Below, piece after piece: positions 32,618 through 63,896 of a stretch of DNA of 64,000 nucleotides. Under the pieces are notes generated by a model that had not been told where the DNA came from, did not search any database, and saw only the letters and a program-made list of their open reading frames with translations. The position numbers and the translations under genes were made by a program. Source of the DNA: a virus; the IMG/VR virus record IMGVR_UViG_3300044784_000011, one strand, 5' to 3'. How positions within the stretch are numbered: position 1 is the first letter of the stretch; the number at the start of each line of letters is the position of its first letter.

Positions 32618-34786
32618 ATGCACAAGGAGGAACGGCACGTGCGAATCCGTACGCGAAGAGGAGTCCGCTGGGTGGTAGCGGTCCTGGCGCTGGCGTTGCT
32701 TACTCCGGCGCTGACCTACCTTCCCGAGCAGCCGGCAACGGCCCAGGCCCAGCCTCCGCTGAACGGCGAGGCCATCCGCTCTGACAACTGGGTGGCGCTT
32801 GACGACCCGGTGGACGGGGCCAACGACGAGGCTTGCACCGACGACGATGACCCGGACTACACGCCCTGTTGGGATGGCAACGACCTCCACCAAGGCTACA
32901 CTCGTACCAACGATGCGTTCTTCGCCAAGGGAGGGAAGCCGGACTGCCTGGTCACGACCGGGCGCAGTCCCCACGCCTACAACAACTCTGGGCAGGGAGC
33001 GCCGACCGGGCTCCAGACCAACTTCTTCTACGACCAAGAGCGGCACGTCATCAGCAACGCCGACCCGGCCCACGACGACTATGAGCAGGATGACCCCTGG
33101 GCAGACCCGACGTACTATGTGCACACCGCGCAGGACGACGAGGTCAGCACCCAGACGATCTGTGGCCGGCAGACGATCGTGCTCACCGGCTCCTCGTTCA
33201 CCGTCACTTTCCCGCGAGCGCTAGCCATCGCTCCGGCATTCGTGGTCTTCTCTGTGGGGTCGATGGACTCCGATGAGAACGGCCACCAGATCAGAGCCAA
33301 GCGGCTCAACACCAAGACCGCCACAGGTTTCACCGGCAGCGTCTGGAACGGCGCCAACCCTAGCCTCTCACTCGCCGGTAAGACGGTCATCATCGACTAC
33401 TGGGCCGACACCCGTACCTCGGCCAACGAAGGCGGGTATTGGCACCGGGGCGGAACCCTTACCGCCAACACCAACGCATCTGGTGACCTGACGATCAACT
33501 TCCCGGACTTCAACGCTGGCAACGCTCCCAGCGCCATCTATGTCGTCAACTCTGGCGGCTCCGTTGTGCCGGGTCGGGTGGTCGCTTGGGACCTCGACTC
33601 CACGCAGGCCAAGGCCCGCATCTGGAAGCACATCCGGTGTACGCCGACTCCAACCTGTGATACGCGCATCAAGTCGTCCTCAACCTCGGTGAACTATGTG
33701 GCTGTAGGGCCCAAGGGCGGCTCGCCTCGGCGCTGGAACGACCAGGGTGGAGGCGGTTGGACTCAGACCGTGGCCGACACCGACCCGAATGACTTGGGGA
33801 TCGACGCGGAGTGTGGCGAGGACGCCAACGGCGATGACTCCTGCTACCGTTGGGACCACACTCTGAGCCGGGTGGACTACGGGTATGAGACCAGCTTCGA
33901 GGACCTGGACGACATCGATGGGCTCGACCCTACGGTGTACTTCGGAAACGCAGCGCTCGACTGGTCCACGTTCGACTCCAACGCGCCGACGATGGAGGAG
34001 GTTCCGGTAGCTGTCGCCAACTGGAAGGTGTCCGCCCAGGACATCGGCGACGAGGCCTGTGCTACGCAACAGTCGCTCCTGACGGACGGCTATTACGATG
34101 ACGGGCTCAACCACATCTATAGCACGACCACCATCCACAACACCAACAGCGCTATGCACTTTGGGTCGATCCCCATCACGGTCGGAGAAAACTGCGGCAT
34201 CGAAGGTGTGTACCGGCATGAGATCGGCCACGGCTTCGCGCTCGGCCACAACGAGGAGTCAACCTCCATCATGAACACGGCGGAGGCCCACGGCTTCAGT
34301 ACCCTCCCGTTGGACGATCAGGTGTCGTTCCGGTCGATGTACGGCTACTCCGGCTCCCTGTACCGCAAGGGACTGAAGGCCAGCGACTTCGCTACTGTGG
34401 GCAAGGGGTTCTCTGTCGCGCGGGTAACGGTCGTGAGCAAGGGTAAGCCAGTCCTCGTTCGCGGCATCCCGCACACGCCCGTCAACGTGGAGGTCTCGAA
34501 CTGGGCCGGGAAGGTACCAGCGACCGTACTTGTGCTGGGCGGCTCGATGCCGAACGGGATCACGGCGGTTCCCAGCGACACCATGAACGTCCATGCCTGG
34601 GACACCGGCGCGAGCTTCGTGGCTGAGGTCCGGGACGCTGATGGCGTCGTGGTGGAGGCGCTACATGTGGACGGCTCTCAGGTCCGCATGCACAAGGACG
34701 CGCACGCAACCGACGACATCGACGGTGGGAACGCACTCGTCGTGGACATCACCAGGCTGAAGGCGAAGGCCAAGAAGGTGGCCTAG
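32618..34786 (+). CDS. Large secreted multidomain protein with metzincin-type Zn-protease domain
   Basis: Signal peptide ending ATAQA; HEIGHGFALGH + SIMN Met-turn; two beta-rich lectin-like segments (VTFPRAL..PAFV; TINFP..APSAI). Confidence 0.8.
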   Translation: MHKEERHVRIRTRRGVRWVVAVLALALLTPALTYLPEQPATAQAQPPLNGEAIRSDNWVALDDPVDGANDEACTDDDDPDYTPCWDGNDLHQGYTRTNDAFFAKGGKPDCLVTTGRSPHAYNNSGQGAPTGLQTNFFYDQERHVISNADPAHDDYEQDDPWADPTYYVHTAQDDEVSTQTICGRQTIVLTGSSFTVTFPRALAIAPAFVVFSVGSMDSDENGHQIRAKRLNTKTATGFTGSVWNGANPSLSLAGKTVIIDYWADTRTSANEGGYWHRGGTLTANTNASGDLTINFPDFNAGNAPSAIYVVNSGGSVVPGRVVAWDLDSTQAKARIWKHIRCTPTPTCDTRIKSSSTSVNYVAVGPKGGSPRRWNDQGGGGWTQTVADTDPNDLGIDAECGEDANGDDSCYRWDHTLSRVDYGYETSFEDLDDIDGLDPTVYFGNAALDWSTFDSNAPTMEEVPVAVANWKVSAQDIGDEACATQQSLLTDGYYDDGLNHIYSTTTIHNTNSAMHFGSIPITVGENCGIEGVYRHEIGHGFALGHNEESTSIMNTAEAHGFSTLPLDDQVSFRSMYGYSGSLYRKGLKASDFATVGKGFSVARVTVVSKGKPVLVRGIPHTPVNVEVSNWAGKVPATVLVLGGSMPNGITAVPSDTMNVHAWDTGASFVAEVRDADGVVVEALHVDGSQVRMHKDAHATDDIDGGNALVVDITRLKAKAKKVA

Positions 34787-34848: not shown

Positions 34849-35694
34849 ATGACCGACGAGTCCGGATCACGGCGCTACCCGTCTCAGCCGACGCCCAGAC
34901 CGCTCAAGGACGGGTCAGTGACGATTGACCCTCGGCTCGACCGCGTGCCGGAGCACGATGCGCGGAGCCGTGCTTGGGACGTACGCGCTCTAATGGCCGC
35001 ACCAACGATCCTGCCACCGCTCAGGTCCTTCACGTGGCCGAACCGGATCGTGACCGACCAGGGCAACGAAGGCGCGTGTGTCGGTCACGGCCACATGGGC
35101 CGCTCGGTCAACGCGCCGGTCCCGGAGCGGGTCACAGGACCTGGTGGGGACGAGCGTGTGTCTGCGGTTGCATACCAGGTCTATCGCCACGCCCAGGAAG
35201 TGGACGAGTGGCCGGGCACCGACTACGACGGGACCTCGGTGCTTGCCGGTGCGAAGATCATGGCGCGGGACCGGCTGTATGAGAGCTACTGGTGGGCGTT
35301 CGACATCGACTCCATCCTGCTCGCCATCGCCTACGTCGGGCCGGTCGTCCTCGGCATACCATGGTTGGACTCGATGTTCGAGCCGAGGCCCAGCGGTCTC
35401 TTGGACTGCTCAGGGAACATCGCCGGAGGGCACTGCATCAGAGCACGAGGCGTCCGGCTCCGGGCGAGGCTGTACAAGGAAGGAATGGACCCCATCGAGG
35501 TCATCCGCCTGACCAACTCGTGGGGTCGCGGCTACGGGATCAACGGTGACGTCTTCATCAAGGTCGATGACCTCGCAGACCTCCTTCGGGATGAAGGCGA
35601 CGCCTGCGTGCCGGTCGAGCCGGGCCAGACGCGCTCCCAGCCCGGCGATGCTCCGCGTATCCCGCTGCTGCTACCGAACCTGGACATGCCATGA
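34849..35694 (+). CDS. Papain-like (C1) cysteine peptidase
   Basis: DQGNEGAC (oxyanion Q, catalytic C), GGHCI (H), TNSWG..YG.NG (N). Confidence 0.85.
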   Translation: MTDESGSRRYPSQPTPRPLKDGSVTIDPRLDRVPEHDARSRAWDVRALMAAPTILPPLRSFTWPNRIVTDQGNEGACVGHGHMGRSVNAPVPERVTGPGGDERVSAVAYQVYRHAQEVDEWPGTDYDGTSVLAGAKIMARDRLYESYWWAFDIDSILLAIAYVGPVVLGIPWLDSMFEPRPSGLLDCSGNIAGGHCIRARGVRLRARLYKEGMDPIEVIRLTNSWGRGYGINGDVFIKVDDLADLLRDEGDACVPVEPGQTRSQPGDAPRIPLLLPNLDMP

Positions 35695-35939: not shown

Positions 35940-36247
35940 GCGCTGGGGTACGGCCGGAGTTCCAAGAGCGAGCGGAGCAGCCGGAGGCCAACCCGGACCT
36001 GGAGCTACGCGATCAGCAAATCCGTGAGGAGGCTGAGCGCCGGTTCCTCGCGCTCGTCCGGGAGCGGGACACCTTGAAGGATCGTGTGACGGAGTTGGAG
36101 CGCGGGTTCCGGCTTACCAAGCGGGCTTGGTCGCTCGCCAAGGACGTCATCTCTGACCGGTTCGGACCAGTCACAGGAAACCTTATCCGGCAAGGTATTG
36201 AGACACAGGTGGAGCGGGAGCTAGGTGCTCGTCTCTCCGACAGCTAG
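35936..36247 (+). CDS. Coiled-coil hypothetical protein
   Basis: ATGA overlap. Confidence 0.6.
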   Translation: MSAGVRPEFQERAEQPEANPDLELRDQQIREEAERRFLALVRERDTLKDRVTELERGFRLTKRAWSLAKDVISDRFGPVTGNLIRQGIETQVERELGARLSDS

Positions 36248-37730
36248 GGCGAGGCTCTGGCCGCGACTCCGGTACGAGCCGCACGAGGGCCAGTGCCTGA
36301 TCCACTCATCCCAGGCACGTCACCGTGTCGCTGTCGAGGGACGCAGGGCCGGTAAGTCGCAAACCGGAGGGCACGAGCTAACCGTTGAGGCAATCGCAAC
36401 GAAGCCGTTTGCTACGACGCTGTTGGAAGCTGGGCTGCGGCGCGAGTTCTGGATCATCGGTCCCGAGTACACGGACTCTGAGAAGGAGTACCGGGTGCTA
36501 TGGAACGATGTGCAGCGTCTCAGTATCCCAATGGACCACCCTGGCTCCTACAACAACCCGGAGGGCGGCCAGATGGTCATGTCGCTCTGGGACGGAGCAT
36601 TCATTGTTCACGCCAAGTCAGCGAAGTACCCTGGGACGCTCGTGGGCGAAAGCCTCGACGGTGTGATCATGGCCGAGGCGGCGAAGCTGAAGAAGATTGT
36701 CTGGACGAAGTATGTGCGCCCGATGCTGGCCGACACAAAGGGGTGGAGCCTGTGGCTTACAACACCAGAGGGAAAGAACTGGTTGTATTCCCTCTGGCAG
36801 CTAGGGCGGAACTCGCGAGCCAGAGACTGGGAGTCATGGCGCTTTGGCTCCTGGATCAATCACTTCGTCTTTCCGCAGGGAGCGACGACAGAAGGGATCA
36901 AGCTGCTCAAGACGGCCCAGGAAGCCAAGCGGCCGTTCACGCCCGAGCTTGTGGCAGCATCTGGGGTTGATGAAGAGATTGCGTCGATGATGGACGAGAT
37001 GTCGCCATCGCTTTTCGACCAGGAGGTCCAGGCCCTCTTCACCGAGTTCGTGGGAGCCGTCTTCAAGACTTGGGACGAGGAGTACCACGTTCAAGCCTTG
37101 ACCTACAACCCGGCGCTGCCCATCTTCGCGGCGATCGACTACGGCTGGACCAACCCGTTCGTTGTGCTACTCCTACAAGTCGATAAGAATGGCAATGTGT
37201 ACGTTCTGTCGGAGAATTATGAGACGGAGCGGGATACGGCTGAGGTCGCTGACGACCTCTCGCGACGGTGGCCGCTACTCTCCAAGGTCCGCACCATCTA
37301 CCCGGACCCGGCCGAGCCGGACGATACCCACACGTTGAAGAAGAAGTGGCGCGTCAGAGCGGCCACTAATACCGGCGGCGAACTCAAGACCCGGCTGGAG
37401 CTAATCCGGCGAGCGCTGAAGCCTGCGCTGATCGGGCATTATCCGCTGGGTACGGATGGCGCTCCAATAGTCGGTGGCCCGCGACTGCTTGTGGACCCGT
37501 CGTGCCACAACCTGATTCGAGAGATGCAAGACTATCGCTACCCGGAGACCAAGGAGGAAAGCCTGCGGAACCCGAACGACGAGCCGCTGGACAAGGATAA
37601 CCACGGCCCGGAGGCGCTGGGCAGGTTCTATCGTGGATACTTCGGTAAGATCGAGCGCCCATCCGGCTCTACAGTTCGTGGTTCGGGCCTGTCTGGAACA
37701 CCACAGCGACGACGGAAGCGAGTGGCCTAA
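36225..37730 (+). CDS. terL: Terminase large subunit
   Basis: GRRAGKS Walker A, GVIMAEAAK Walker B variant, TTPEGKNW, AIDYGWTNP and DKDNHGPEAL nuclease motifs. Confidence 0.93.
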   Translation: MLVSPTARARLWPRLRYEPHEGQCLIHSSQARHRVAVEGRRAGKSQTGGHELTVEAIATKPFATTLLEAGLRREFWIIGPEYTDSEKEYRVLWNDVQRLSIPMDHPGSYNNPEGGQMVMSLWDGAFIVHAKSAKYPGTLVGESLDGVIMAEAAKLKKIVWTKYVRPMLADTKGWSLWLTTPEGKNWLYSLWQLGRNSRARDWESWRFGSWINHFVFPQGATTEGIKLLKTAQEAKRPFTPELVAASGVDEEIASMMDEMSPSLFDQEVQALFTEFVGAVFKTWDEEYHVQALTYNPALPIFAAIDYGWTNPFVVLLLQVDKNGNVYVLSENYETERDTAEVADDLSRRWPLLSKVRTIYPDPAEPDDTHTLKKKWRVRAATNTGGELKTRLELIRRALKPALIGHYPLGTDGAPIVGGPRLLVDPSCHNLIREMQDYRYPETKEESLRNPNDEPLDKDNHGPEALGRFYRGYFGKIERPSGSTVRGSGLSGTPQRRRKRVA

Positions 37731-38134
37731 TGCAGCGGAGATTCGTATTCATTCGCGACGAAGATGAGACCGGGATATCCGGCGAAGGTCTCGTTGTCGA
37801 AGGGGTGCAATACTCCGACGGGCATTGCGCCTATCGCTGGATGACGGAACACCAGACCGATCAGCTAGCCGAGGACATCGAGCGGCTGCATGCGATCCAC
37901 GGTCATGGCGGCCGGACCCGCATTGTGTTCCTCGATACCGAAGGCGGAGCGCCGATCCCCGAAGCCATCCACGAGGTCCGTCCACTCTCGATTGAGGCCC
38001 AGGCTCGCTGGGGACGTTACTGCCCTGGATGTGGTGCGCTCAAAGGCTTCCCGGCGACGGCTGACGGCGGAGTCGAGCAGTACCGCTCCCATCAACACGC
38101 CTGGCTGCCGCTCCCGCCCAAGGATTCGCTGTGA
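37730..38134 (+). CDS. Hypothetical protein
   Basis: TAATG coupling; RDEDETGISGEG.V.EGVQY.DG pattern. Confidence 0.7.
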   Translation: MQRRFVFIRDEDETGISGEGLVVEGVQYSDGHCAYRWMTEHQTDQLAEDIERLHAIHGHGGRTRIVFLDTEGGAPIPEAIHEVRPLSIEAQARWGRYCPGCGALKGFPATADGGVEQYRSHQHAWLPLPPKDSL

Positions 38135-38622
38135 GCCGAGCCGAGGACGAGCATCCGAGACCTAGACGACCGGCTCATTGGTCGCAGCGGGACTGGAAGG
38201 CGCTCAAGCTCTATCTCGGCTGGGTGCGTGACCGGCTCGGGCTACGCGACTGGGAGGTCATCCTCTCCCACGAGACCACAGCCGACAACGACGACTGCGA
38301 TGCGCTCGCCTCCATACACCCCACAGACGGGAGACGGCGGGCAGTGCTTCGCCTTGACCGGGACTTCCGCGAGTTCCCGCCCGTCGAGCAGCGCAACGCG
38401 CTTGTCCACGAGCTAACTCATCTCCACCATCGTGACGCAACGGATATCATCCGGCTGACGCTTCCGGTCGCGCTGGGTGGAGTAGCCTACAATATCCTGT
38501 GGGAGAACTTCCGGCAGCAGGTTGAGTTGATGGTTGATAATATCGCCATACCAATCGCAGAGATGTTCCCCGTTCCATCCTGGCCCGAGCCGAAGCGCAA
38601 GAAGAAGGGGAAGAAGCCTTGA
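38131..38622 (+). CDS. Small HExxH metallopeptidase-like protein
   Basis: EQRNALVHELTHLHH; basic C-terminus. Confidence 0.7.
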   Translation: MSRAEDEHPRPRRPAHWSQRDWKALKLYLGWVRDRLGLRDWEVILSHETTADNDDCDALASIHPTDGRRRAVLRLDRDFREFPPVEQRNALVHELTHLHHRDATDIIRLTLPVALGGVAYNILWENFRQQVELMVDNIAIPIAEMFPVPSWPEPKRKKKGKKP

Positions 38623-40172
38623 CCGTCGCTTGGACGCCATACAGCACGGCCCGGCCATTGATGGAGAACCTGCCGGGTTGGGTTCCGGCGGCCGAGCAGG
38701 AGCGCATTGCCTCATACCAACTGTATGAGCAGATCTATTGGGGCCACCCGACCGTCTTCAAGCTCACGTCCCGAGGCTTGGAGAATAACCCGATCTACAT
38801 ACCAAGTGCTCGCACCATTGTGGACACGACGGCTCGCTATGTGTGCAAGGATCTGGGACACGTGATCAAGGAGGGACTAGACCCGGCCGTCACCCCCAAC
38901 GAGGCAGATCGGGCTGGGCTCGCCTTCGCGCTCGATACCCTGCACAAGCGTGAGAAGTTCTTCAGCAACTTCCATGCCAACAAGCTGTATGGGATCATGC
39001 GCGGAGACTGGCTATTCCACGTGTTCGCTGACCCAGACCGGGCGGATGGCAAGCGAATCTCCATTCAAGGCGTCGATCCCACGTCGTACTTCCCCATCTA
39101 CCGGGACATCACGGACCCAAGCACTCTTGAAGCTGTGGCGCTAGCAGACCTCGTGGCGATCGGTGACAAGACCTTCGTACGGAGACTGTTGTACCGACAG
39201 GAAGTGAACGACCAGGGCGACAAGACCATCTTCCGCTCGCTGTTCTACTTCGATCCGGAGGGAGGCGAGTGGCTGGACTTGGAGAAGGACCCAGAGACGG
39301 TGCCGCCCGAGTTTGAGACCTTGGCGGAGGAACAGCTTGACCCGGCCATTCAGGCGATCCCTGTGTACCACGTCCGCAACAACCCAACCGCCAACCGGCC
39401 GTTCGGGTCGAGTGAGGTCCGAGGCATTGAGCGTCTGTTCGCCGCGATCAACCAGGGGATCAGCGACGAGGAGCTAAGCCTGGCGTTGGATGGGCTCGGT
39501 ATGTATGCGACGGAGGGTGGTCCTCCTCGCGACGCGGACGGGAACGAGCTACCGGCGTGGCCCCTGGGCCCAGGGCGTGTTGTCGAGACGGACCCTGACT
39601 CGAACTTCCGGCGAGTCACCGGCATCTCGACCGTGGCTCCGTACCTAGAGCACGTCAACTGGATCAGGGACGCGGCTCGCGAGGCCACCGGCGCGAATGA
39701 CGTTGCAATCGGCAAGGTTGACGTAAGTGTGGCAGAGTCAGGGATTGCGCTAGCGATCCGGATGGACCCCTTGCTTTCCCGTGTCGGGTATTACGACCTG
39801 GACGCCACCGACACGCTTGCCAACTTGTGGTACGACCTACAAACTGGGTGGTTCCCGGCGTACGAGCGACAGAGCTTCCTCTCGGTCATGGTGGAGGCGA
39901 CGCTCGGGTCCAAGCTCCCGGTCAACCGCAAGGAGAAGTTCGCGGAGCTTGTGCTAATGCTCACGAACAGCGTGATCACTGGTGAGTTCTTCCTCACCGA
40001 AGCGGAGAAGCTAGGCTACAAGTTCCCGGACGGAGCCGCAGCGATGGCGGCCGCAGCGATGGCGGAGAAGGCGGCTAGCACGGCCGCTGCCGACCCGTTT
40101 GCGGCCAGAGGCGGAGAGGAGCTTGCTGGAGGGAACGATGGACCCGTACCAGCCGAGGAGGTCCCAGCGTGA
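38619..40172 (+). CDS. Portal protein
   Basis: Position after TerL; size; ERIASYQLYEQIYW, PVYHVRN..FGSSE..G, SGIAL. Confidence 0.9.
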   Translation: MTVAWTPYSTARPLMENLPGWVPAAEQERIASYQLYEQIYWGHPTVFKLTSRGLENNPIYIPSARTIVDTTARYVCKDLGHVIKEGLDPAVTPNEADRAGLAFALDTLHKREKFFSNFHANKLYGIMRGDWLFHVFADPDRADGKRISIQGVDPTSYFPIYRDITDPSTLEAVALADLVAIGDKTFVRRLLYRQEVNDQGDKTIFRSLFYFDPEGGEWLDLEKDPETVPPEFETLAEEQLDPAIQAIPVYHVRNNPTANRPFGSSEVRGIERLFAAINQGISDEELSLALDGLGMYATEGGPPRDADGNELPAWPLGPGRVVETDPDSNFRRVTGISTVAPYLEHVNWIRDAAREATGANDVAIGKVDVSVAESGIALAIRMDPLLSRVGYYDLDATDTLANLWYDLQTGWFPAYERQSFLSVMVEATLGSKLPVNRKEKFAELVLMLTNSVITGEFFLTEAEKLGYKFPDGAAAMAAAAMAEKAASTAAADPFAARGGEELAGGNDGPVPAEEVPA

Positions 40173-40542: not shown

Positions 40543-42123
40543 GTGCCCGTCCTCGTCCCGCAACTCCAGCAGGGCAACCTTGCGCGTTACCTCTCCGAGC
40601 AGCGCGTCACTGAAGCTGTGTTACGTGAACAGCTTCTGGCAGCGTCGCTCGATGCCGAGGAGCGGATTCGCCGCCTAGCGGGACGAGAGGGGATCGGCGC
40701 AAGGGTCCGGGCTGCGCAGCTATCCGTGGCCCGCATTGAGCTTGCGAAGATCGTTGATGCTTCGATGTCGGGACCGGTTCAACGTGCCATCGAGGATGGG
40801 GTTAGGCGCAGCGCGGAGACAGCCGGAGTCTCGTTCTTCAAAGTCCTCGATGTGTTAGAGGGCCAGCTAGGGAAGATACCCGGCTTGCGCGAGGGGATTA
40901 TTGCCCAGGCTCGGCGCGGAGCGGACAACCTGATCTCACGAGGGATGAACAACATTCCCTTGTCCCGCCAGGTCTACCGAACTGGTGCACTTGCCAAAGA
41001 CCAGCTGTACCGGACGATCAACAATATGGTCGCCACCGGGTCGAGTTGGAGCGAGCTTGCGGCCGAGGCTCGGAAGTTCATCTCACCGTTCACGCCGGGA
41101 GGCGTCGGCTCGGCTGCGAAACGCTTAGCCCGCACAGAGTTGAACAATGCCTTCCACACTACGCAGATCAGGACGACGCTGACGAACCCGTTCGTGGAGG
41201 GCTACAAGTGGCAACTCTCCGGTAGCCATCCGAGACCCGACCAGTGCAACGCTTATGCGGACTACAATGGGACGGGAGTCTTTAGCAAGGCGAACGTTCC
41301 GGGGAAGCCACACCCGAACTGCTTGTGCTTCCTCTTGTACGAGACGCCTTCTGTCGAGGAGTTCCAGAACAAGTTCCTCACCGGCGGCTACGACCACTGG
41401 CTGGACGAGTTCGTGGAGGGGAACGCTCCTCATCTCTCCAGTGCGCTCAAGAAGTCGGTCAAGGCGAGACCTCAGGTGCCAGTCAAACGTGTGCAGAAGC
41501 GTGCAGCGCCACAACGTGAACGTCCCTGGCTAGATGAGTCTCAGCGTATCCACTCTACGGACTTCGAGGATGCGACCAACCTCCGGGAGCGTCTGGCCCG
41601 CGAGCTTGCCGATGACCGGGAATATCAGCAGTGGCTCGCTGATATGGACTTGTGGACGCAGGACTTCGATACGGTCAACGAGGTTCGGCGTCACGTCCTA
41701 GAGTTATTCCGAGGAGCGACGCGGGAAGGTCGGGAGCGAGCAGACAGGATTCTTTCTGCGCTGGAGCAGGCGGAGGCGAACGCACCAACCCTGCATCGCG
41801 GCATTGGTGTGAAGAAATCTGAGGTTGGTTCGATCCGCCCTGGGCAGGAAATCGACATCAATATGTCGTCATGGTCAGCGAACCGGGAGATTGGCGAGGA
41901 CTTCGCTGAGTTCAACATCTTCGAGGACGACATGGTTGGCGTGGTGTACGAGCTAGTACCCGGCTCACAATCGCTGAACATCTCGCCGTACGCGGCTGAG
42001 ATGATGATCCCACAGGTAGAGTGGATCACGGCTGGACGTTATCAGGTCCGGGCTAGAGTCTTCGACAAGGCCAATCAGGTCTGGCGCGTCAAGCTCAAGC
42101 AGATAGGGACGTTCACGCGATGA
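40543..42123 (+). CDS. MuF-like minor head protein fused to a C-terminal ADP-ribosyltransferase domain
   Basis: RLARTE..., YKW, DQC, PHPNCLC (MuF); LHRG / MSSWS / QVEW (R-S-QxE ART motifs). Confidence 0.8.
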   Translation: MPVLVPQLQQGNLARYLSEQRVTEAVLREQLLAASLDAEERIRRLAGREGIGARVRAAQLSVARIELAKIVDASMSGPVQRAIEDGVRRSAETAGVSFFKVLDVLEGQLGKIPGLREGIIAQARRGADNLISRGMNNIPLSRQVYRTGALAKDQLYRTINNMVATGSSWSELAAEARKFISPFTPGGVGSAAKRLARTELNNAFHTTQIRTTLTNPFVEGYKWQLSGSHPRPDQCNAYADYNGTGVFSKANVPGKPHPNCLCFLLYETPSVEEFQNKFLTGGYDHWLDEFVEGNAPHLSSALKKSVKARPQVPVKRVQKRAAPQRERPWLDESQRIHSTDFEDATNLRERLARELADDREYQQWLADMDLWTQDFDTVNEVRRHVLELFRGATREGRERADRILSALEQAEANAPTLHRGIGVKKSEVGSIRPGQEIDINMSSWSANREIGEDFAEFNIFEDDMVGVVYELVPGSQSLNISPYAAEMMIPQVEWITAGRYQVRARVFDKANQVWRVKLKQIGTFTR

Positions 42124-42299: not shown

Positions 42300-43109
42300 A
42301 TGAGTCAGAGGCTCAGGGACCAGCTTCACCGATCGGGCCTGCTCGCCCGTCCGCAGATCATCGGCTGGGACCGGCTCCACCGGCCCATCTGGAGTGTCGC
42401 AGGCGGCAGCGTGACCGATCCCGGCGACAGTGGCGCCGATGACACCGGCGGCGACGACGACGGAGGCGAAGGGGACGACAGCGGCGACAGTGGCGCCGAT
42501 GACGACTCTGACTCTGCTGACGATGCCGACGATGACAAGGACAAGGACAAGCCGCAGGACCGGCGTTCAGCGGACGCCGAGCGGAGGAAGCGCGAAGAGG
42601 ACGAGCGAGCGCGGAAGACTCGTGCCAAGATCGCAGCGGCAGACAAGCGTGCATCCGAGGCAGAGAAGCGCTACCGGGACGCGCGTGCGGAGTTGGACAA
42701 GGACCGGCCAGAGGTCGAGCGCGTCAAGGGCGAGCTTGCCGAGGCAGAGGGACGAGTCTCGCACCTCACGTCCGTCAACCGGGAACTCGCACTCCAAGTC
42801 GCCTTCTTCCGCAACAGCAAGGTGGACTGGGTGGACCCATCGGACGCGATGTACATCGCGCTCCGCGAGCTTGCCGACCTCGAAGTGGAAGAGGACGGCT
42901 CGACGGACGACGCTGAGGTGTCGAAGGTCATCGCTCGGATGGTCAAGGAGAAGCAGCACCTGGTTCGCCGTTCCCAGCCCAAGAGCGGTGCTGGCGTCGG
43001 CGGAGGCAAGAAGCAGGACAACGGACTTCCTAGCGGTCTCACTGCAGATCAAGCGGCGATGGCCCCAGCGGTTCGCTCCCGGCTCATCCAGCCGAACAAG
43101 CCCGCATAG
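42300..43109 (+). CDS. Capsid scaffolding protein
   Basis: Asp/Gly-rich linker, coiled coil, W.DP.DA domain; upstream TATACT -10 (42248) and GAGGAGG RBS. Confidence 0.85.
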   Translation: MSQRLRDQLHRSGLLARPQIIGWDRLHRPIWSVAGGSVTDPGDSGADDTGGDDDGGEGDDSGDSGADDDSDSADDADDDKDKDKPQDRRSADAERRKREEDERARKTRAKIAAADKRASEAEKRYRDARAELDKDRPEVERVKGELAEAEGRVSHLTSVNRELALQVAFFRNSKVDWVDPSDAMYIALRELADLEVEEDGSTDDAEVSKVIARMVKEKQHLVRRSQPKSGAGVGGGKKQDNGLPSGLTADQAAMAPAVRSRLIQPNKPA

Positions 43110-43127
43110 CCCCCACAAGGAGGGGTG

Positions 43128-43523
43128 ATGGCGAGGTACGACAAGTATGGTCCGAGAACAGGAGGCTTTCGAGCGCCGGTCGCAGCGGCCGTGCTCGCGG
43201 CTGACCTGAGCAAGCCGTTCGCGGTGGGTCTCGACGCCAACGGCCGAGTGGTGAAGGGTGCCGGGACCTCCGGCATCCTCGGCATCATGGTCAACACCAA
43301 GGCCAAGGCGGTCGGTGATATCGTGGACGTCATGACCGCCGGTGAGATCGTGGAGGCGACGCTGTCCGACGGCACCACGCCACTCACCGCTGGGGCGCGT
43401 GTGTGGGGGATCGGTGCGACCGGTCTCCTGGCGCTCGCCACGGCGGTCGGGTCCAAGCCGATCGGGTACGCTGTCGAAGCGTCCCGGCTGGTGGTCCGCG
43501 TCGGCGTCCAGGCTGCTGAGTAG
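43128..43523 (+). CDS. Capsid decoration protein
   Basis: MARYDKY..GGFRA..AVGLDANGRVVKG..GDIVDVMTAGEIV; between scaffold and capsid. Confidence 0.75.
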   Translation: MARYDKYGPRTGGFRAPVAAAVLAADLSKPFAVGLDANGRVVKGAGTSGILGIMVNTKAKAVGDIVDVMTAGEIVEATLSDGTTPLTAGARVWGIGATGLLALATAVGSKPIGYAVEASRLVVRVGVQAAE

Positions 43524-43538
43524 GGGAGGAGGAAGACT

Positions 43539-44801
43539 GTGCAGAGCCACAATATCGCACTACTGGAAGCGTCGCGGCAGAAGCTGTACCGCCCGGCCGC
43601 TCCCAAGATCGTCCTGCCCGGCTTCGCCTCTCCGCGAGGCATCCACCGGGGCATGGAGCCGATCGACTGGAGGAAGCTCGGGCTGTACCCCGGCATCGCC
43701 GGAGGTTCCCGAGGCGTCAACACTGAGGGCGATGTCCTTACCACCACCACGGATGGGCGGGACCTCAACCAGCTGTGGGCTGACTTCCAGGCCATCCTCG
43801 GTGCGTGGAACGCTCAGCGGCAGGCCATCATCAACTTCCTTACCTTCACGGTCACGGAGCCGGTGGAGGACGTGCCGCAGGTGCCTACGGTGGACTTCGA
43901 GGAGGCGTCGGAGTTCGGTGAGCCCAAGCGGATCAGGGGAGTCTCGTACTTCTCCCTGGCATACGACTTCCGCTGGTACGACATCGGCGTCAGCTACACC
44001 TGGAAGTTCCTCCTGGGTGCGTCGGCCAACCAGTTGGCGACCCTGAACAACCAGGTGCTGGAGGCTGATAACCGGCTCGTCTTCAGCCGGGTCCTCAAGG
44101 CGATCTTCAACAACGTCAATAGGACCACGGACCTGAACGGGACCGTGTACAACGTGTACCCGTTCTACAACAACGACGGCACCGTGCCGCCACCCTGGAA
44201 GAACAACACGCACCTCTCCACCCACACCCACTTCCTGAACTCCGCGTCCACCACCACGAACATCTACGACGCCACCGACCTCGACGCGATCGAGACCCAC
44301 CTGACCCACCACGGCTTCGGTGCCGACGTGGGCAGCCGGATCGTCCTGATGTTCAACTCTGCCAACACCGCGATCGTGCGGGGGCTGCGGGCCGGGGTGG
44401 CCAACTCCAAGTACGACTTCATCCCATCCACGTCCCAGCCCGCCTTCCTCGCCTCCGGGCTGGTCGGCGGCGGGCAGCCCGCAGGGACCATCGCCGGTCT
44501 CAACGTCATCGGCTCTTGGGGCAACCTCCTGATCGTGGAGGACGACTGGATGCCGGCCGGGTACATCTTCGGGTTCGCCACCGGTGGGGCCAACGCGGCC
44601 GACAACCCGGTGGGCATCCGGGAGAACCCGCGTGCGCCGGGCCTGCGGCTCGTCAAGGGTGCGCAGCCCGACTACCCGCTCATCGACTCCTTCTACAACC
44701 GGGGTCTCGGGACGGGCGTGCGCAAGCGGGGTGCCGGCGTCGTCATGGACATCGTCACCGCGCCGGGCACCGGCTACACCATCCCGACCGCGTACGTCTA
44801 G
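43539..44801 (+). CDS. Major capsid protein
   Basis: Strongest codon bias, GGAGGAGG RBS, size and position; FEEASEFGEP, PLIDSFY.RG.G.GVR. Confidence 0.9.
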   Translation: MQSHNIALLEASRQKLYRPAAPKIVLPGFASPRGIHRGMEPIDWRKLGLYPGIAGGSRGVNTEGDVLTTTTDGRDLNQLWADFQAILGAWNAQRQAIINFLTFTVTEPVEDVPQVPTVDFEEASEFGEPKRIRGVSYFSLAYDFRWYDIGVSYTWKFLLGASANQLATLNNQVLEADNRLVFSRVLKAIFNNVNRTTDLNGTVYNVYPFYNNDGTVPPPWKNNTHLSTHTHFLNSASTTTNIYDATDLDAIETHLTHHGFGADVGSRIVLMFNSANTAIVRGLRAGVANSKYDFIPSTSQPAFLASGLVGGGQPAGTIAGLNVIGSWGNLLIVEDDWMPAGYIFGFATGGANAADNPVGIRENPRAPGLRLVKGAQPDYPLIDSFYNRGLGTGVRKRGAGVVMDIVTAPGTGYTIPTAYV

Positions 44802-44822
44802 GCCACGAGAGGAGGAAACTCG

Positions 44823-45428
44823 TTGAGCACCATGAACGTCAACGACATCGAGGAAGGCCTGCGCCGTCTCCTCGCTGTCAAGTCCGGTGCCGAGGAGCCG
44901 ACTCGGCTGGAGCGCATCCAGCTGAACGACCCGGCCGAATGGAACGACGATGACTGGGAGTTCGCGAACCAGCGCGGACTCGTCCCACTCGAACTCCAGA
45001 GCGAGTACCAGCGTCGGGTGATCGAGCGTCGGCACCGCAAGGAACTGGAGGCGCTCCAGGGTGGACTGCCGGAGAACTTCACCGGCAACAACCCGGTCAC
45101 CGGCACTGCTACTGTCTCGCCTCCGCCCGTCTCCCAGACGCTGGACGCAGGAGACCGTTTGCGCCAGATCGAACTGCAGCAGGCTCAGCTGCAGATGGAA
45201 GCGGACGCGCTGCAGGCGTCGGGTTCTGCCGATGACGGCGACGACGCGGAGGCCAAGTACAGCCGGCAGACCGTGCCGCAGCTGCAGGCAGAGATCAGCC
45301 GCCGCAACGCCGACCGCGACGAGGACGACACCATCGAGCCGGACTCCCAGCGCAAGGCCGACCTGGTCACCGCGCTTGTGGAGGACGACGAGATGCAGTC
45401 GGAGAGGAGCACCGAGCCGGTCGAGTAG
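44823..45428 (+). CDS. Hypothetical protein with C-terminal HeH/SAP-like motif
   Basis: YSRQTVPQLQAEI..R......RKADLVTAL. Confidence 0.7.
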   Translation: MSTMNVNDIEEGLRRLLAVKSGAEEPTRLERIQLNDPAEWNDDDWEFANQRGLVPLELQSEYQRRVIERRHRKELEALQGGLPENFTGNNPVTGTATVSPPPVSQTLDAGDRLRQIELQQAQLQMEADALQASGSADDGDDAEAKYSRQTVPQLQAEISRRNADRDEDDTIEPDSQRKADLVTALVEDDEMQSERSTEPVE

Positions 45429-45437
45429 GTGACCGGG

Positions 45438-45475
45438 CCAGGGAGGCGTGCCGCGACCCGGTATCGCCTCCCTGG
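45438..45475 (+). terminator. Rho-independent terminator-like hairpin after the capsid operon
   Basis: CCAGGGAGGCG / CGCCTCCCTGG 11-bp stem followed by a pyrimidine run. Confidence 0.6.
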
Positions 45476-45550
45476 TCTCTTCCCCCACGGCACCGGCTCC
45501 GCTCCATGCAGAGCCATGCAGTGGGCCAGGAACCGACAAGGAGGAAGAGC

Positions 45551-45886
45551 ATGCCGGCAGGAGCCTCGCTCCAGATTCGGCGGAAAGCAGACGGCTCCGT
45601 CCACATTGTGGGCGAGCTTCCTGTGACACATGGCTTCAACGCTCGCCACATCGCGAGGGAATTGGAGCACCCGTTCGGCTCCATGTTCGAGGTCTTCGTG
45701 GTGCTGCGGACGGCCAACCTCGGTGATGCTGTCTACCGGCTCACCGGCTTCGGGGAGCTTGATCCGGACAACGCCGACGATGACCGCCTGAACCTCAACA
45801 ACTGGGAAGTCGAGCGCGTCTCCGATGACGAGCCGATCCTGGAAGCGATTGAGCAAGTGACTGAGGAGGAGACGTCCGATGGCTGA
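45551..45886 (+). CDS. Hypothetical protein
   Basis: GGAGGA RBS. Confidence 0.7.
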   Translation: MPAGASLQIRRKADGSVHIVGELPVTHGFNARHIARELEHPFGSMFEVFVVLRTANLGDAVYRLTGFGELDPDNADDDRLNLNNWEVERVSDDEPILEAIEQVTEEETSDG

Positions 45887-46340
45887 TGGCGTCTTCAACA
45901 ACGTCAAGGGAGAGTTCAAGACTCTGGCCGCACTCCCGGCCGCCGCAGACGCGCTCGTCGTCACACTTGTGGAGACCACGGGACTCGAAGCTGAAGACAC
46001 CCTCAACAACTACGACGACCTGGGTGCACTCTACACGGCGGCCAACAACGAGCCGGCAGGCGGCACCTATGTCCGCAAGACCGTCACCGCGTCGATCACC
46101 GTTACCGTCGATGACACGAACAACCGCGTCGATATCGACATGCCGGACCTGACGTGGACCGCGCTCACCACGACCGGCAACAACCCCATCTCCCGGCTCC
46201 TCGTCAACTACGACAACGACACCGGTGCCGGAACCGACACGAACATCAGGCCCTGCACATATCACGACTTCGTGATCACCCCGGACGGCTCTGACGTCGT
46301 GGCTGTTGTGGCGGCGCTCGGGTTCTACAGGGCAGCCTGA
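45879..46340 (+). CDS. Virion structural protein (fibre-module base/decoration)
   Basis: GAGGAG RBS; strong codon bias; beta-rich Thr/Asp sequence. Confidence 0.75.
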   Translation: MADGVFNNVKGEFKTLAALPAAADALVVTLVETTGLEAEDTLNNYDDLGALYTAANNEPAGGTYVRKTVTASITVTVDDTNNRVDIDMPDLTWTALTTTGNNPISRLLVNYDNDTGAGTDTNIRPCTYHDFVITPDGSDVVAVVAALGFYRAA

Positions 46341-47041
46341 TGAATCGGCACGGAGCGATCGAACTCGCGCCACGGCCGAGGCATACGCGAGAGGACCTGG
46401 AGCGGCGACGGGAACGGCTCGATGCGGCGGAGTTCGTTGGTCTGAACTCGAAGGGCGAGCCGGTCTATGCGATGAAGGGAGGGGCCAGCCTCTTCCTTGC
46501 GGAGCCGGTTGACCCGTTCCACACCGCTGCTGGTACGGCCATCAACACCTTCACGACCAACAGAGACGTCAGCCCGAACCCCTGCCCGATCATTGTCGGT
46601 GGTCGGCTGAAGCGTGGCGTCCGGATCAAGGTTGAGGTTCAAGGGAACTGGGGCGCGACAGCAACACCGACGCTTCAGCTTGGTATCTATGCGGGTCTGC
46701 CGGGAGCTACCGGGCAGCCTGCTGCGATCACGAGTATCCTCGCCCAGAGCGCGGCTATCGCCTGCACCGCGTTGACGTCGATCCCTTGGAGGATGGAGTA
46801 CCTAGGGCTCATCACTGTGGACGGGACCTCCGGGACGATTCTTGGCCAAGGTGATTTGGAGTTCGGTACGAGCCTCACCGCCTTCTCCGCCAACGCGATT
46901 CCGGTTACGGCCGCTGCGAGGACCGTGACCCGCGACACGACCATCAACTGGTGCTTCGGAGTCTGCGCTGCATTCTCCGTCTCCAACGCAGCCAACCAGG
47001 TTCAGGTGGACTATCTCAACGTCTTGGTCATGAACGCCTGA
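46340..47041 (+). CDS. Virion structural protein with GG-ending N-terminal leader
   Basis: TGATG coupling; beta-rich mature part. Confidence 0.7.
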   Translation: MNRHGAIELAPRPRHTREDLERRRERLDAAEFVGLNSKGEPVYAMKGGASLFLAEPVDPFHTAAGTAINTFTTNRDVSPNPCPIIVGGRLKRGVRIKVEVQGNWGATATPTLQLGIYAGLPGATGQPAAITSILAQSAAIACTALTSIPWRMEYLGLITVDGTSGTILGQGDLEFGTSLTAFSANAIPVTAAARTVTRDTTINWCFGVCAAFSVSNAANQVQVDYLNVLVMNA

Positions 47042-52063: not shown

Positions 52064-52357
52064 ATGGAGCTTCACTGCGGAAAGAAGAAGCATGGACTTC
52101 TGATCCCTGACAAGGGGCTGATTGAGGTCTCGTGTGCATCGCAGTTCTGCGGCAAGGCTCCTGGCGTTGTTGTACTGCACAGGTTCGACGTGAGAACCGG
52201 TCTCCTCGTGGAGACGCTACGATTCCAGGAACCACCGATACCTAGAGGGGAGGAAACACCAGATGCCAATCACGACAACGGCGCTGCCGTTCGGAATCCG
52301 GGACACCCAGCTTCGGGCGCTCCCGGCTCCTTGGACCACGCCCGGCTCGCTGGTTGA
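52064..52357 (+). CDS. Small Zn-binding protein
   Basis: ELHC..KHG...EVSC...C..VVLHRFD. Confidence 0.6.
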   Translation: MELHCGKKKHGLLIPDKGLIEVSCASQFCGKAPGVVVLHRFDVRTGLLVETLRFQEPPIPRGEETPDANHDNGAAVRNPGHPASGAPGSLDHARLAG

Positions 52358-52811
52358 TCTGCCGTACGCGAGGACCTGGAGTTGGTCAGAGTCCGAAGAC
52401 TTCTCGGAGCTTCGTGGCGACGACCAGACCATCGCCTCGCGTGGCGCCGGTCCTCAGATCGAAGTTGAGCTGGAGAACGGAGGCCTGCCGCTGGAGCCCT
52501 ACAAGCTCATCGCGGGAGGCGCCACGGTGGACACCGGGACGACCCCCAACATGGTCAAGACCTACACGAAGCTGGCGACGGATGCCCGTCCCTACTTCAA
52601 GGTTGAAGGCCAGAGCATGTCAGACTCGGGCGGTGACGTCCACGCGCTCATCTTCCGCGCCAAGCTGACCGGCGACATCGAGGGCGAGTTCGCCGATGGC
52701 GAGTTCCACGTGACCGGCGCGACCGGTAACGGGTTCCCGTCCGCAGAGGCGGCCCACATCGGCAAGCTGTACTCCTTCGTCAACAACGAGACCGTCACGC
52801 CCATCGCCTAG
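52263..52811 (+). CDS. Major tail (tube) protein
   Basis: GGAGG RBS; LPFGIRD, ELRGDD, PYFKVEGQSMSDSGGD; strong codon bias. Confidence 0.85.
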   Translation: MPITTTALPFGIRDTQLRALPAPWTTPGSLVDLPYARTWSWSESEDFSELRGDDQTIASRGAGPQIEVELENGGLPLEPYKLIAGGATVDTGTTPNMVKTYTKLATDARPYFKVEGQSMSDSGGDVHALIFRAKLTGDIEGEFADGEFHVTGATGNGFPSAEAAHIGKLYSFVNNETVTPIA

Positions 52812-63503: not shown

Positions 63504-63896
63504 ATGCGACAAGAGCAGGAAGACTACTACAAGAGCCGGGACAAGGTCACACCCCCAGTCCGGAACCAGACGTTGGTGTACGGCGGAGTGGGCGTGCTCA
63601 TCTCCTTCGCACTGCGGACCTTCCTGGACTGGGAGGTCAACCCGGCCGACGCGGAGGGTTGGTGGAACGCGGTCCAGTCGATCGCGGTGCCGCTCATCCC
63701 AGCCGTCACCGCGCTGTTCGGTTCAGTTCGTGGAGCTTGGGCCGCTCGGGAGGAGGTCACGCCGGTGGAGGACCCTTTGCTGTGGGACGAGGACAGCAAC
63801 TCGTGGCAGCCGGGCGTCGTCAGGCGTGGCAACCCCAACGTGAAGTCAGATCCGTCACTGAGGAGGGCACCACGGCGACGCGACTATCCGGGGTAG
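63504..63896 (+). CDS. Holin
   Basis: Two hydrophobic helices; ends AREEVTPV; follows the endolysin. Confidence 0.75.
   Translation: MRQEQEDYYKSRDKVTPPVRNQTLVYGGVGVLISFALRTFLDWEVNPADAEGWWNAVQSIAVPLIPAVTALFGSVRGAWAAREEVTPVEDPLLWDEDSNSWQPGVVRRGNPNVKSDPSLRRAPRRRDYPG

Follow-up and report, generated by a model that had tools for sequence, protein, structure and literature searches.

Why do three otherwise unrelated proteins of a phage head region begin with leaders of similar end, and are these leaders removed by a common protease? The question is raised by a 64,000-nucleotide stretch of the virus record IMGVR_UViG_3300044784_000011, which is called the window here and is numbered from its first nucleotide. 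The proteins concerned are a head scaffolding protein (269 amino acids, 42300-43109), the major capsid protein (MCP, 420 amino acids, 43539-44801) and a protein of 233 amino acids that is named after the start of its gene, the 46340 protein (46340-47041). Every gene of the window lies on the plus strand. A previous reading, made from the sequence alone (the sequence-only reading), had located the three leaders, and both the positions and the sequences that it gave have been confirmed.

The leaders comprise residues 1-36 of the scaffold (42300-42407, ending HRPIWSVAGG, predicted cut G36/S37), residues 1-56 of the MCP (43539-43706, ending LYPGIAGG, predicted cut G56/S57) and residues 1-48 of the 46340 protein (46340-46483, ending GEPVYAMKGG, predicted cut G48/A49). 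With the cut marked by a slash, the three ends fit the pattern [VIM]-[AK]-G-G/[SA]. The leaders had been described as arginine-rich, which applies only in moderation, with 6 Arg among the 36 residues of the scaffold leader, 5 among 56 in the MCP and 8 among 48 in the 46340 protein. The change in sequence character directly after the Gly-Gly that had been noticed is a true feature of all three, the leader being followed by an acidic run in the scaffold, by a conserved N-arm in the MCP and by a conserved body in the 46340 protein.

The explanation that we consider probable as a whole is the following. Scaffold and MCP would be made as precursors with propeptides of 36 and 56 amino acids that end in hydrophobic-x-G-G, and an endopeptidase would cut after the Gly-Gly during or after procapsid assembly. 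The window would hold the local form of a family-wide system, in which scaffold and MCP carry matching forms of a phage-specific motif whose inferred P2 residue is always Gly. In the relatives, the enzyme would most likely be a small JAB/MPN+ (JAMM) zinc metalloprotease whose gene belongs to the head module or adjoins it. The 46340 protein, a predicted lectin-like jelly roll, would have acquired a scaffold-type leader at its normal N-terminus in this lineage; it is probably a third substrate, with a leader that may serve as a tag for assembly or targeting and be removed afterwards. In the phage of the window, which has no JAB gene, the cut would fall to an enzyme of the host or to some other protein of the phage, the only plausible one being a predicted zincin encoded at 38131. 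A common cleavage site on scaffold and MCP is well supported, by the co-variation of the leaders within the family and by the published N-termini of homologs. The sequence-only reading had gone further, to a common maturation tag on three proteins cut by one protease; of this, the scaffold and MCP site stands, the inclusion of the 46340 protein is plausible and the enzyme may be one of the host or of the phage. The leader system looks widespread and so far undescribed.

Scaffold and capsid leaders in the Patience-like family

A phmmer search of PDB with the window MCP (phrog_3990, E 5e-111; HK97 fold) retrieved the capsid proteins of the phages Patience (8GIU, E 2.7e-88) and Adjutor (8SAJ, E 5.3e-82). 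Residues 57-419 were covered, and both alignments begin at residue 57 of the window protein. The gene order MuF, scaffold, minor capsid protein and MCP is common to the window and these relatives, and by sequence comparison the head module of the window is Patience-like. The scaffold was assigned from matches to phrog_4708/4866 and from its slot between the MuF and minor capsid genes, as in the relatives, and consists of the leader (residues 1-36), the acidic run, a coiled coil and a C-terminal domain. The minor capsid (cement) protein encoded between scaffold and MCP (43125-43523; phrog_5042) is leaderless and shows 35-50% identity to the minor capsid proteins of Adjutor, Xenia2 and other phages. 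In the phage collection searched, this MCP family was found in 162 records, from phages of Mycobacterium, Gordonia, Microbacterium and related genera.

The leaders of scaffold and MCP vary together in this family. When the leader pairs of 16 phages were compared, the mean best-segment score was 32.6 for cognate pairs versus 20.9 for non-cognate pairs, the observed cognate sum was reached in none of 20,000 permutations (p about 5e-5), and the cognate pair ranked first in 9 of the 16 phages. The motif common to both proteins is PIFGG in Patience and Konstantine (PIFGGT in Patience), KFFAFGGDGG in Madi, PFGGE in Riparian, IFGAE in Xenia2, LSGHD in Adjutor, [LI]HGxDG in RikSengupta and YDLRSxF... 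in L006, and in each head-tail locus scanned (12-19 kb) the phage's own motif was confined to these two proteins. In an alignment anchored by hand on the conserved Gly, this residue occupies the inferred P2 position in all 32 leader sequences of the 16 phages. The general pattern of the leader end is a hydrophobic residue, a variable one, Gly, one more residue and the cut, which is followed mostly by D, E, T, S or A. The residue at the inferred P1 position varies among relatives (G, A, H, R, Q, M or F). Of the Gly-Gly motif put forward in the sequence-only reading, a single invariant Gly at P2 is thus what homologs keep, whereas the second Gly is not conserved and the motif as a whole is phage-specific.

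Published data on two homologs place the mature N-terminus at or next to this motif. For Patience gp21, the peptides nearest to the N-terminus begin with residue 35, 'following a glycine in the -1 position', a result that its authors left without explanation (PMC4324244). In the Patience genome (L014, JN412589), gp21, which sits in the scaffold slot 3' of MuF, reads VLPIFGG/T35, and the MCP, gp23, reads VFPIFGG/T20. The cryo-electron microscopy (cryo-EM) models of the capsid proteins begin at Thr20 in Patience and at Asn28 in Adjutor (PMC11965321). In Adjutor the common LSGHD lies directly before N28, the first modelled residue, and S57 of the window MCP aligns to Q29, one residue after N28. 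Proteomics and cryo-EM are two independent kinds of data, and from both the mature N-termini of the homologs lie at or next to the common motif.

Another position had been given for the capsid cut in the 2014 Patience paper, which placed it at residues 82/83 and named gene 22 as the scaffold (PMC4324244). This position cannot be right, because residues 20-82 are present in the mature shell of the 2025 model. By cryo-EM, Patience gp22 is the minor capsid protein, and the solved minor capsid homologs retain their N-terminal Met (PMC11965321). It is likely that gp21 is the scaffold and, given the model start at T20 and the identity of gp22, that the true cut in both gp21 and gp23 follows PIFGG. 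If so, the reading proposed here would explain the non-tryptic N-terminus of gp21 as well as the misplaced capsid cleavage site, and mature N-termini could be called from the common motif, which is a simple rule for annotators. A search of the literature, with many subscription papers lying outside it, retrieved no description of the PIFGG motif, of its link to a JAB protein or of a JAB/JAMM enzyme as capsid maturation protease.

The Patience/Adjutor module is the closest known system to that of the window. Both have homologous MCP, minor capsid, MuF and scaffold-slot proteins in the same order, and in both the scaffold-slot protein and the MCP share an N-terminal motif, with the mature N-termini of the homologs lying at it (T35 of gp21, T20 of gp23, N28 of Adjutor). 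The leaders of Patience are shorter (34 and 19 amino acids versus 36 and 56 in the window) and end in PIFGG/T instead of AGG/S. In the window a third protein carries a leader as well, and the JAB/MPN+ gene present in Patience is missing.

The GTG start of the window MCP at 43539 is preceded by a strong GGAGGAGG ribosome-binding site, which the internal ATG (M39) lacks, and both the GTG and the GGAGGAGG site are kept in a metagenomic relative at 90% identity (L031); on these sequence signals the long MCP leader is real. In the same relative the last 30 residues of the scaffold leader are identical, and the acidic run 3' of the leader diverges.

Within the window itself, the three leader ends resemble one another only weakly. 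When the scaffold 10-mer was used in a BLOSUM scan, the 46340 site came only tied third among the 72,675 window positions, and in the all-against-all comparison of the 16 phages the window scaffold and MCP leaders ranked 7 of 16, a modest similarity. In six-frame translation, no more than two copies of the strict motif are present in the window. Independent data set the similarity firmly above chance, namely the match of the leader of a 46340 homolog (P0008, see below), this rarity of the motif and the co-variation in 16 phages.

The major tail protein (52263-52811) contains an internal LEPYKLIAGGAT segment that fits a looser form of the leader pattern. It is taken as unrelated to the leaders because it is conserved as part of the fold in the tail proteins of relatives and is not N-terminal.

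A metalloprotease of the relatives and its absence in this phage

To our knowledge, capsid maturation proteases come from few families: HK97-type, ClpP-type, those with the T4/herpes assemblin fold and the host protease Prp. Pfam and PHROGs scans of all head-cluster products revealed no prohead protease of the HK97/S78 or ClpP type, in agreement with the sequence-only reading, and none of the S49 lambda C-type, of the T4 gp21 type or with the herpes assemblin fold. The PHROG label 'head maturation protease' that falls on the MuF protein reflects MuF homology only.

By contrast with the window, a small JAB/MPN+ gene with intact JAMM motif was found in all 11 relatives with enough sequence, and also in contig L011, the one that encodes the leader-carrying 46340 homolog P0008. 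The gene lies directly 5' of the MuF or scaffold gene in Patience (gp19), Konstantine (gp16), Adjutor (gp11), Xenia2 (gp11), Madi (gp8), Fowlmouth (gp6), Onyinye (gp24) and Riparian (gp11), and upstream of the terminase in Karate (gp3), RikSengupta and L007. The encoded proteins carry the E..HxH..S..D signature and match Pfam Prok-JAB. A tblastn search with Patience gp19 retrieved 98 phage records, all from phages of Mycobacterium, Gordonia or Nocardia, and their counts by host genus fit within the list of phages with this MCP family. Patience gp19 was called a 'protease' in the 2014 paper (PMC4324244), and a few GenBank records already label the JAB gene as "capsid maturation protease".

JAMM enzymes cut after Gly-Gly tails, as in deubiquitinases, the archaeal SAMP proteases and Mec+/CysO. 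Because of synteny, co-occurrence and this specificity, the JAB protein is regarded as the natural leader protease of the family, and from the genomic evidence it is likely to be the enzyme that acts in the relatives. The signature of the relatives' JAB proteins is shared with deubiquitinases, Mec+/CysO, the archaeal SAMP proteases and lambda tail protein K. The likeness has its limits, since none of these enzymes is encoded in the window and since the inferred P1 residue of the family varies, unlike the strict Gly-Gly of ubiquitin-like tails. We know of no JAMM enzyme shown to be a capsid maturation protease. If the reading is true, a JAB/MPN+ enzyme that cuts a co-evolving Gly motif on scaffold and MCP would constitute a new family of such proteases, and this would apply to a large phage group, that of the 162 records with this MCP family.

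The ubiquitin tail LRLRGG is the classic JAMM substrate. In Onyinye (L026) the leader of the scaffold, gp26, ends KLRLRFG and that of the MCP, gp28, ends KLLVRGG, both of which resemble this tail.

In the phage of the window this enzyme is missing, which counts against a transfer of the whole scheme to it. No JAB protein was detected in the window in six frames, either with a custom hidden Markov model built from 8 JAB sequences or with a JAMM regular expression, and the slot just upstream of MuF is empty. The genome amounts to about 71.5 kb in all, made up of the 64-kb window and 7.5 kb that were read from a near-identical metagenome contig (L022:10498-18029), and no JAB gene was found in these 7.5 kb. 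For the family's proposed enzyme to act here, it would thus have to come from the host. The sequence-only reading had spoken of a phage-encoded processing system; for this phage such a system lacks support, as relatives carry a JAB gene in or near the head module and this genome of about 71.5 kb has none.

A cut by a host protease, either a JAMM/MPN+ enzyme of the Mec+ type or a housekeeping endopeptidase, with the phage's own JAB dispensed with, is compatible with the explanation preferred here, and we give it a substantial chance, somewhat short of even. Besides the lack of a JAB gene in the whole genome, it is favoured by relative L034, which has the same type of leader (IWPVLGAE / QAGGA) and no JAB or HExxH gene within 10 kb on either side of the MCP gene; this relative is only a 36.5-kb contig, so its JAB gene could lie elsewhere in the genome. 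Prok-JAB proteins are common in bacteria, and one was present in an actinobacterium among the control genomes. Conversely, the presence of an own JAB gene in 11 of 11 relatives suggests that host enzymes are normally insufficient.

A precedent for host dependence is the staphylococcal phage 80alpha, in which the host protease Prp cuts scaffold and capsid protein at a common N-terminal motif. As proposed for the window, scaffold and MCP of 80alpha lose a short N-terminal peptide at a shared motif and no classical prohead protease is encoded, a likeness that makes dependence on the host a realistic option here. The two systems differ in their motifs, since that of 80alpha imitates ribosomal protein L27, with a cysteine protease cleaving behind a Phe, whereas the window motif is based on Gly; furthermore, the relatives of the window phage have a metalloprotease of their own, and the Gly motif is not known to be linked to any host substrate. 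No L27-mimic motif was found in the window leaders, which end in AGG or KGG.

The most far-reaching version of the reading combines several claims, namely that JAB/MPN+ proteins, which resemble ubiquitin proteases, are an unrecognised class of capsid maturation protease with a co-evolving Gly motif, that the leaders can be transferred to unrelated virion proteins, as in the 46340 protein, and so direct these into the same processing, and that the window phage, having lost the enzyme, exploits a Gly-Gly protease of its host. Taken jointly, these claims are doubtful. Should the reading hold, a phage of this family without JAB would be a natural experiment on dependence on host proteases.

The leader of the 46340 protein

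The 46340 protein is predicted to consist of the 48-residue leader and a TNF/C1q/lectin-like jelly-roll body (residues 49-233), as deduced from an AlphaFold model and from its homologs. In the model (mean predicted local distance difference test 82.5) the leader forms a helix and a hairpin, and the junction residues 48-51 are disordered. The structural matches of the body obtained with VIA-align have middling scores: Z 8.7 to the TNF-like lectin 9IB6 (root-mean-square deviation 2.8, 120 aligned residues), Z 7.6-7.7 to cyanophage fibre and portal-tail proteins and Z 6.9 to BclA. The body matched no sequence family in Pfam or PHROGs, and a tblastn search with the protein against 50,697 phage records gave no match.

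Homologs were found in metagenomes (46 proteins). Among the 19 that were aligned, 17 are about 180 amino acids long and start 0-1 residue after the ..KGG of the window protein, and the leader is kept only in the two closest, P0008 (82%) and P0010 (74%). In these two the Met1 is conserved and the leaders contain in-frame indels of one and two codons (3 and 6 nucleotides). The ratio of nonsynonymous to synonymous substitution rates (dN/dS) relative to the P0008 gene is 0.27 for the leader and 0.10 for the body; by this measure the leader is under purifying selection. The ATG of the gene overlaps the upstream stop codon (TGATG), and the ribosome-binding site at the internal M45 is no better. These sequence features point to a translated N-terminal addition, fused exactly at the normal start of the protein.

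The leader ends of the two relatives, GRPIWKMKGG and GKPIWAAKGG, are nearer to the HRPIWSVAGG of the window scaffold than is the window 46340 copy. When the window was scanned with the 11-mer of P0008 (GRPIWKMKGGA), the scaffold site was the best non-orthologous match, with a score of 38 versus 29 for the next one. Judging from these comparisons, the 46340 protein is probably a third cleavage substrate. The proposal that it is processed in common with scaffold and MCP is plausible inasmuch as leaderless homologs begin at the predicted cut, and the case, though good, is indirect. That the protein is head-associated, as also proposed from the sequence, is open to doubt, a jelly-roll body of this kind being typical of fibre or receptor-binding modules.

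The opposite view, that the leader lies outside the system and that only scaffold and MCP are substrates, with a true start at M45 or a chance likeness to a common beta-hairpin, is in our estimation on the unlikely side. M45 (about 46472) is the start chosen in public gene calls (P0009, 189 amino acids), and in P0010 a Met directly after the Gly-Gly would give a canonical leaderless start. Most homologs are leaderless, the body resembles a fibre or lectin domain and not a head-interior protein, and the scaffold match is the tied third mentioned above. Unrelated proteins contain the hairpin part of the leader (..G-x-D-x-x-G-x-P-I-W) in repeated form, and in one of them, P0065, a PVYK-x-AGGA-x-L unit that spans the would-be cut is present three times; in some contexts the Gly-Gly is therefore merely a beta-turn. 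A profile search of 1.84 billion proteins with the 46340-type leader retrieved, besides P0010, only proteins with repeated hairpins (P0063-P0066) and no further leader-bearing virion proteins. Against this view stand the conservation of the 48 upstream codons in three sequences, with in-frame indels, a retained Met1 and the low dN/dS, the overlapping start, the coincidence of the leader end with the exact start of 17 homologs and the choice of the scaffold site by the P0008 leader end.

The hairpin follows the pattern of two hydrophobic residues, G, Y/W/L, D/N, x-x, G, x, P, I/V and Y/W. It forms tandem repeats in P0064, a membrane-anchored acidic protein, and in P0066, a fibre-like protein, and it is present once inside Patience gp24 (L014), a virion protein reported to lose its C-terminal half.

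Processing of many head proteins by one protease at a short consensus is known from T4, with its protease gp21 and the capsid targeting sequence; a short N-terminal leader that is later removed can there be joined to unrelated cargo proteins, and this is a model for the 46340 leader. T4 differs in the unrelated fold of its protease and in its motif, L/I-x-E/, and the fold of the 46340 protein suggests an external lectin or fibre protein. Since both motif and enzymes differ, the window system is not regarded as a member of either the 80alpha/Prp or the T4 system. If the reading is true, the grafted third leader suggests a portable tag, which could be used to load or process foreign proteins in actinophage assembly.

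In other phages, whose heads are of the HK97 or Mu type, leaderless 46340 homologs are encoded ahead of a large protein, with head genes on one side and tail genes on the other. In L011, L012 and L013 the jelly-roll gene is always 5' of the large protein (496-888 amino acids), and in L011 it comes directly after the terminase and a 238-aa gene. Jelly-roll gene and large protein appear as a module that moves between phages with HK97-type, Mu-type and Patience-type heads.

Other candidate enzymes and the surroundings of the head module

Among the products of this phage, the 163-aa protein encoded at 38131-38622 had been named by the sequence-only reading as one of two candidate proteases. It contains an HExxH motif (HELTH) in which H93 and E94 are invariant, as are E132 and D136, and the second His is missing in one of the nine aligned sequences. 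Its model (mean predicted local distance difference test 82) matches selecase/minigluzincins, SprT/Wss1, IrrE-like and M48 proteins at Z 5-7.4, with 7.4 to selecase and 5.3-6.6 to Wss1/Spartan, a range that is common for the tool. The protein has no Pfam match, and clusters of the AlphaFold database were matched at E 5e-8 to 5e-5, including a 'phage metallopeptidase' and 'SprT-like' proteins. Based on the model, it would be a genuine zincin-fold protein.

That this zincin is the phage's own leader protease in place of JAB is unlikely in our judgement, and it is a weak candidate for this role. Besides it, no protease-like gene is left unassigned in the structural region of this genome, which lacks JAB; its gene belongs to the late operon, where it lies between terminase and portal, and its translation is coupled to that of the latter. 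Its family, on the contrary, does not track the Patience-like head, because homologs were found in phages of other capsid types and none of the remaining 37 Microbacterium phages that have this MCP family gave a tblastn match. The homologs are those of L029 (lambda-E-type capsid and own scaffold), of L030, where the gene is next to a DNA methylase, and of the Microbacterium phage Karate, which has JAB too. As a candidate, the protein keeps its predicted zincin fold in its favour and has the distribution of its homologs against it. A complex prediction of the protein with scaffold residues 1-60 gave a score of 0.00 with an uncertain partner fold, which counts neither for nor against. Public gene calls start the protein about 31 codons downstream (about 38224; P0054, 132 amino acids), and both this call and P0009 omit conserved N-terminal sequence.

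What remains of our estimate for the enzyme in this phage, beyond a host protease and the zincin, falls roughly to another phage protein or to no cleavage at all. In the latter case the leaders would stay on the proteins as common docking motifs, for example by attachment of both N-termini to one common site on the portal, the scaffold or the shell. Co-variation alone would fit a common binding partner too, and the truncated cryo-EM models could result from disorder and not from cleavage, a point that also counts against the reading of the mature N-termini given above. Nevertheless, the position after a Gly at which the N-terminal peptides of Patience gp21 begin corresponds neither to a tryptic site nor to a start codon, and in two capsids solved independently the model sets in at the motif or beside it. 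The relatives have a protease gene in a syntenic position, and the body of the 46340 protein can do without a leader, as its leaderless homologs demonstrate. Docking without cleavage is considered quite improbable, and removal of the leaders by a protease is preferred.

The second candidate of the sequence-only reading, the papain-like cysteine peptidase encoded at 34849-35694 (phrog_16701), is hardly credible as leader protease and was discarded. In its favour are a full catalytic set of the papain type, a location two genes 5' of the terminase and the fact that some papain-fold enzymes (deubiquitinases, C39 peptidases) do cut after Gly-Gly. On the other hand, its homologs in 49 phage records, mostly annotated 'cysteine protease/peptidase', are for the most part neighbours of holins in lysis cassettes, and the phages concerned, which infect Streptomyces, Gordonia, Arthrobacter and Mycobacterium, have head genes unrelated to those of the window. 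Its NSWG motif is of the C1 type with no detectable C39 or deubiquitinase similarity, and the gene follows that of a secreted metzincin, outside the head operon. The adjoining gene codes for a metzincin-like protein of 722 amino acids (32618-34786; weak match to Pfam Peptidase_M10), and the two genes are far from the phage's own lysis genes at 62-64 kb. The small neighbouring open reading frames (37730, 35691, 35936, 40169 and others) gave no protease-like lead in Pfam, PHROGs and Atlas scans.

The analogy with the double-glycine leaders of bacteriocins that had been drawn from the sequence proved superficial. Both kinds of leader are N-terminal, end in Gly-Gly and precede the mature protein, but bacteriocin leaders belong to a context of C39-ABC export and those of the window to cytoplasmic virion assembly. 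Pfam scans of the structural-module proteins revealed no C39 or ABC transporter, and the window leaders lack the LSxxELxxIxGG consensus.

Pfam and PHROGs scans placed an actinophage head module at 36-47 kb of the window. Its genes follow the order terminase large subunit (36225-37730; phrog_2, Pfam Terminase_6N), a 134-aa protein, the 38131 protein, portal (38619-40172; phrog_64, E 3e-28), MuF, scaffold, minor capsid protein and MCP. Several genes without assigned function are located 3' of the MCP gene, followed by the 46340 gene, that of an 888-aa protein and the connector and tail genes.

The MuF-like minor head protein (40543-42123), assigned from PHROG matches to MuF/head morphogenesis proteins, has a C-terminal ADP-ribosyltransferase-like domain that carries LHRG / SSWS / QVEW. 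In the MuF protein of relative L034 (L034:6679-8364) the same place is taken by another C-terminal domain, with a kinase-like DRNxxN motif. These two C-termini fit the known pattern of interchangeable C-terminal toxin domains on MuF proteins.

The metagenome contig L022, from which the last 7.5 kb of the genome were read, links a holin-like gene at the end of the window (63504-63896) to a 171-aa gene at its start (416-931). The 7.5-kb stretch is composed of small genes, among them those of DUF2786 and DUF6011 proteins, and the resulting genome size of about 71.5 kb agrees with a contig of 71,540 bp on record.

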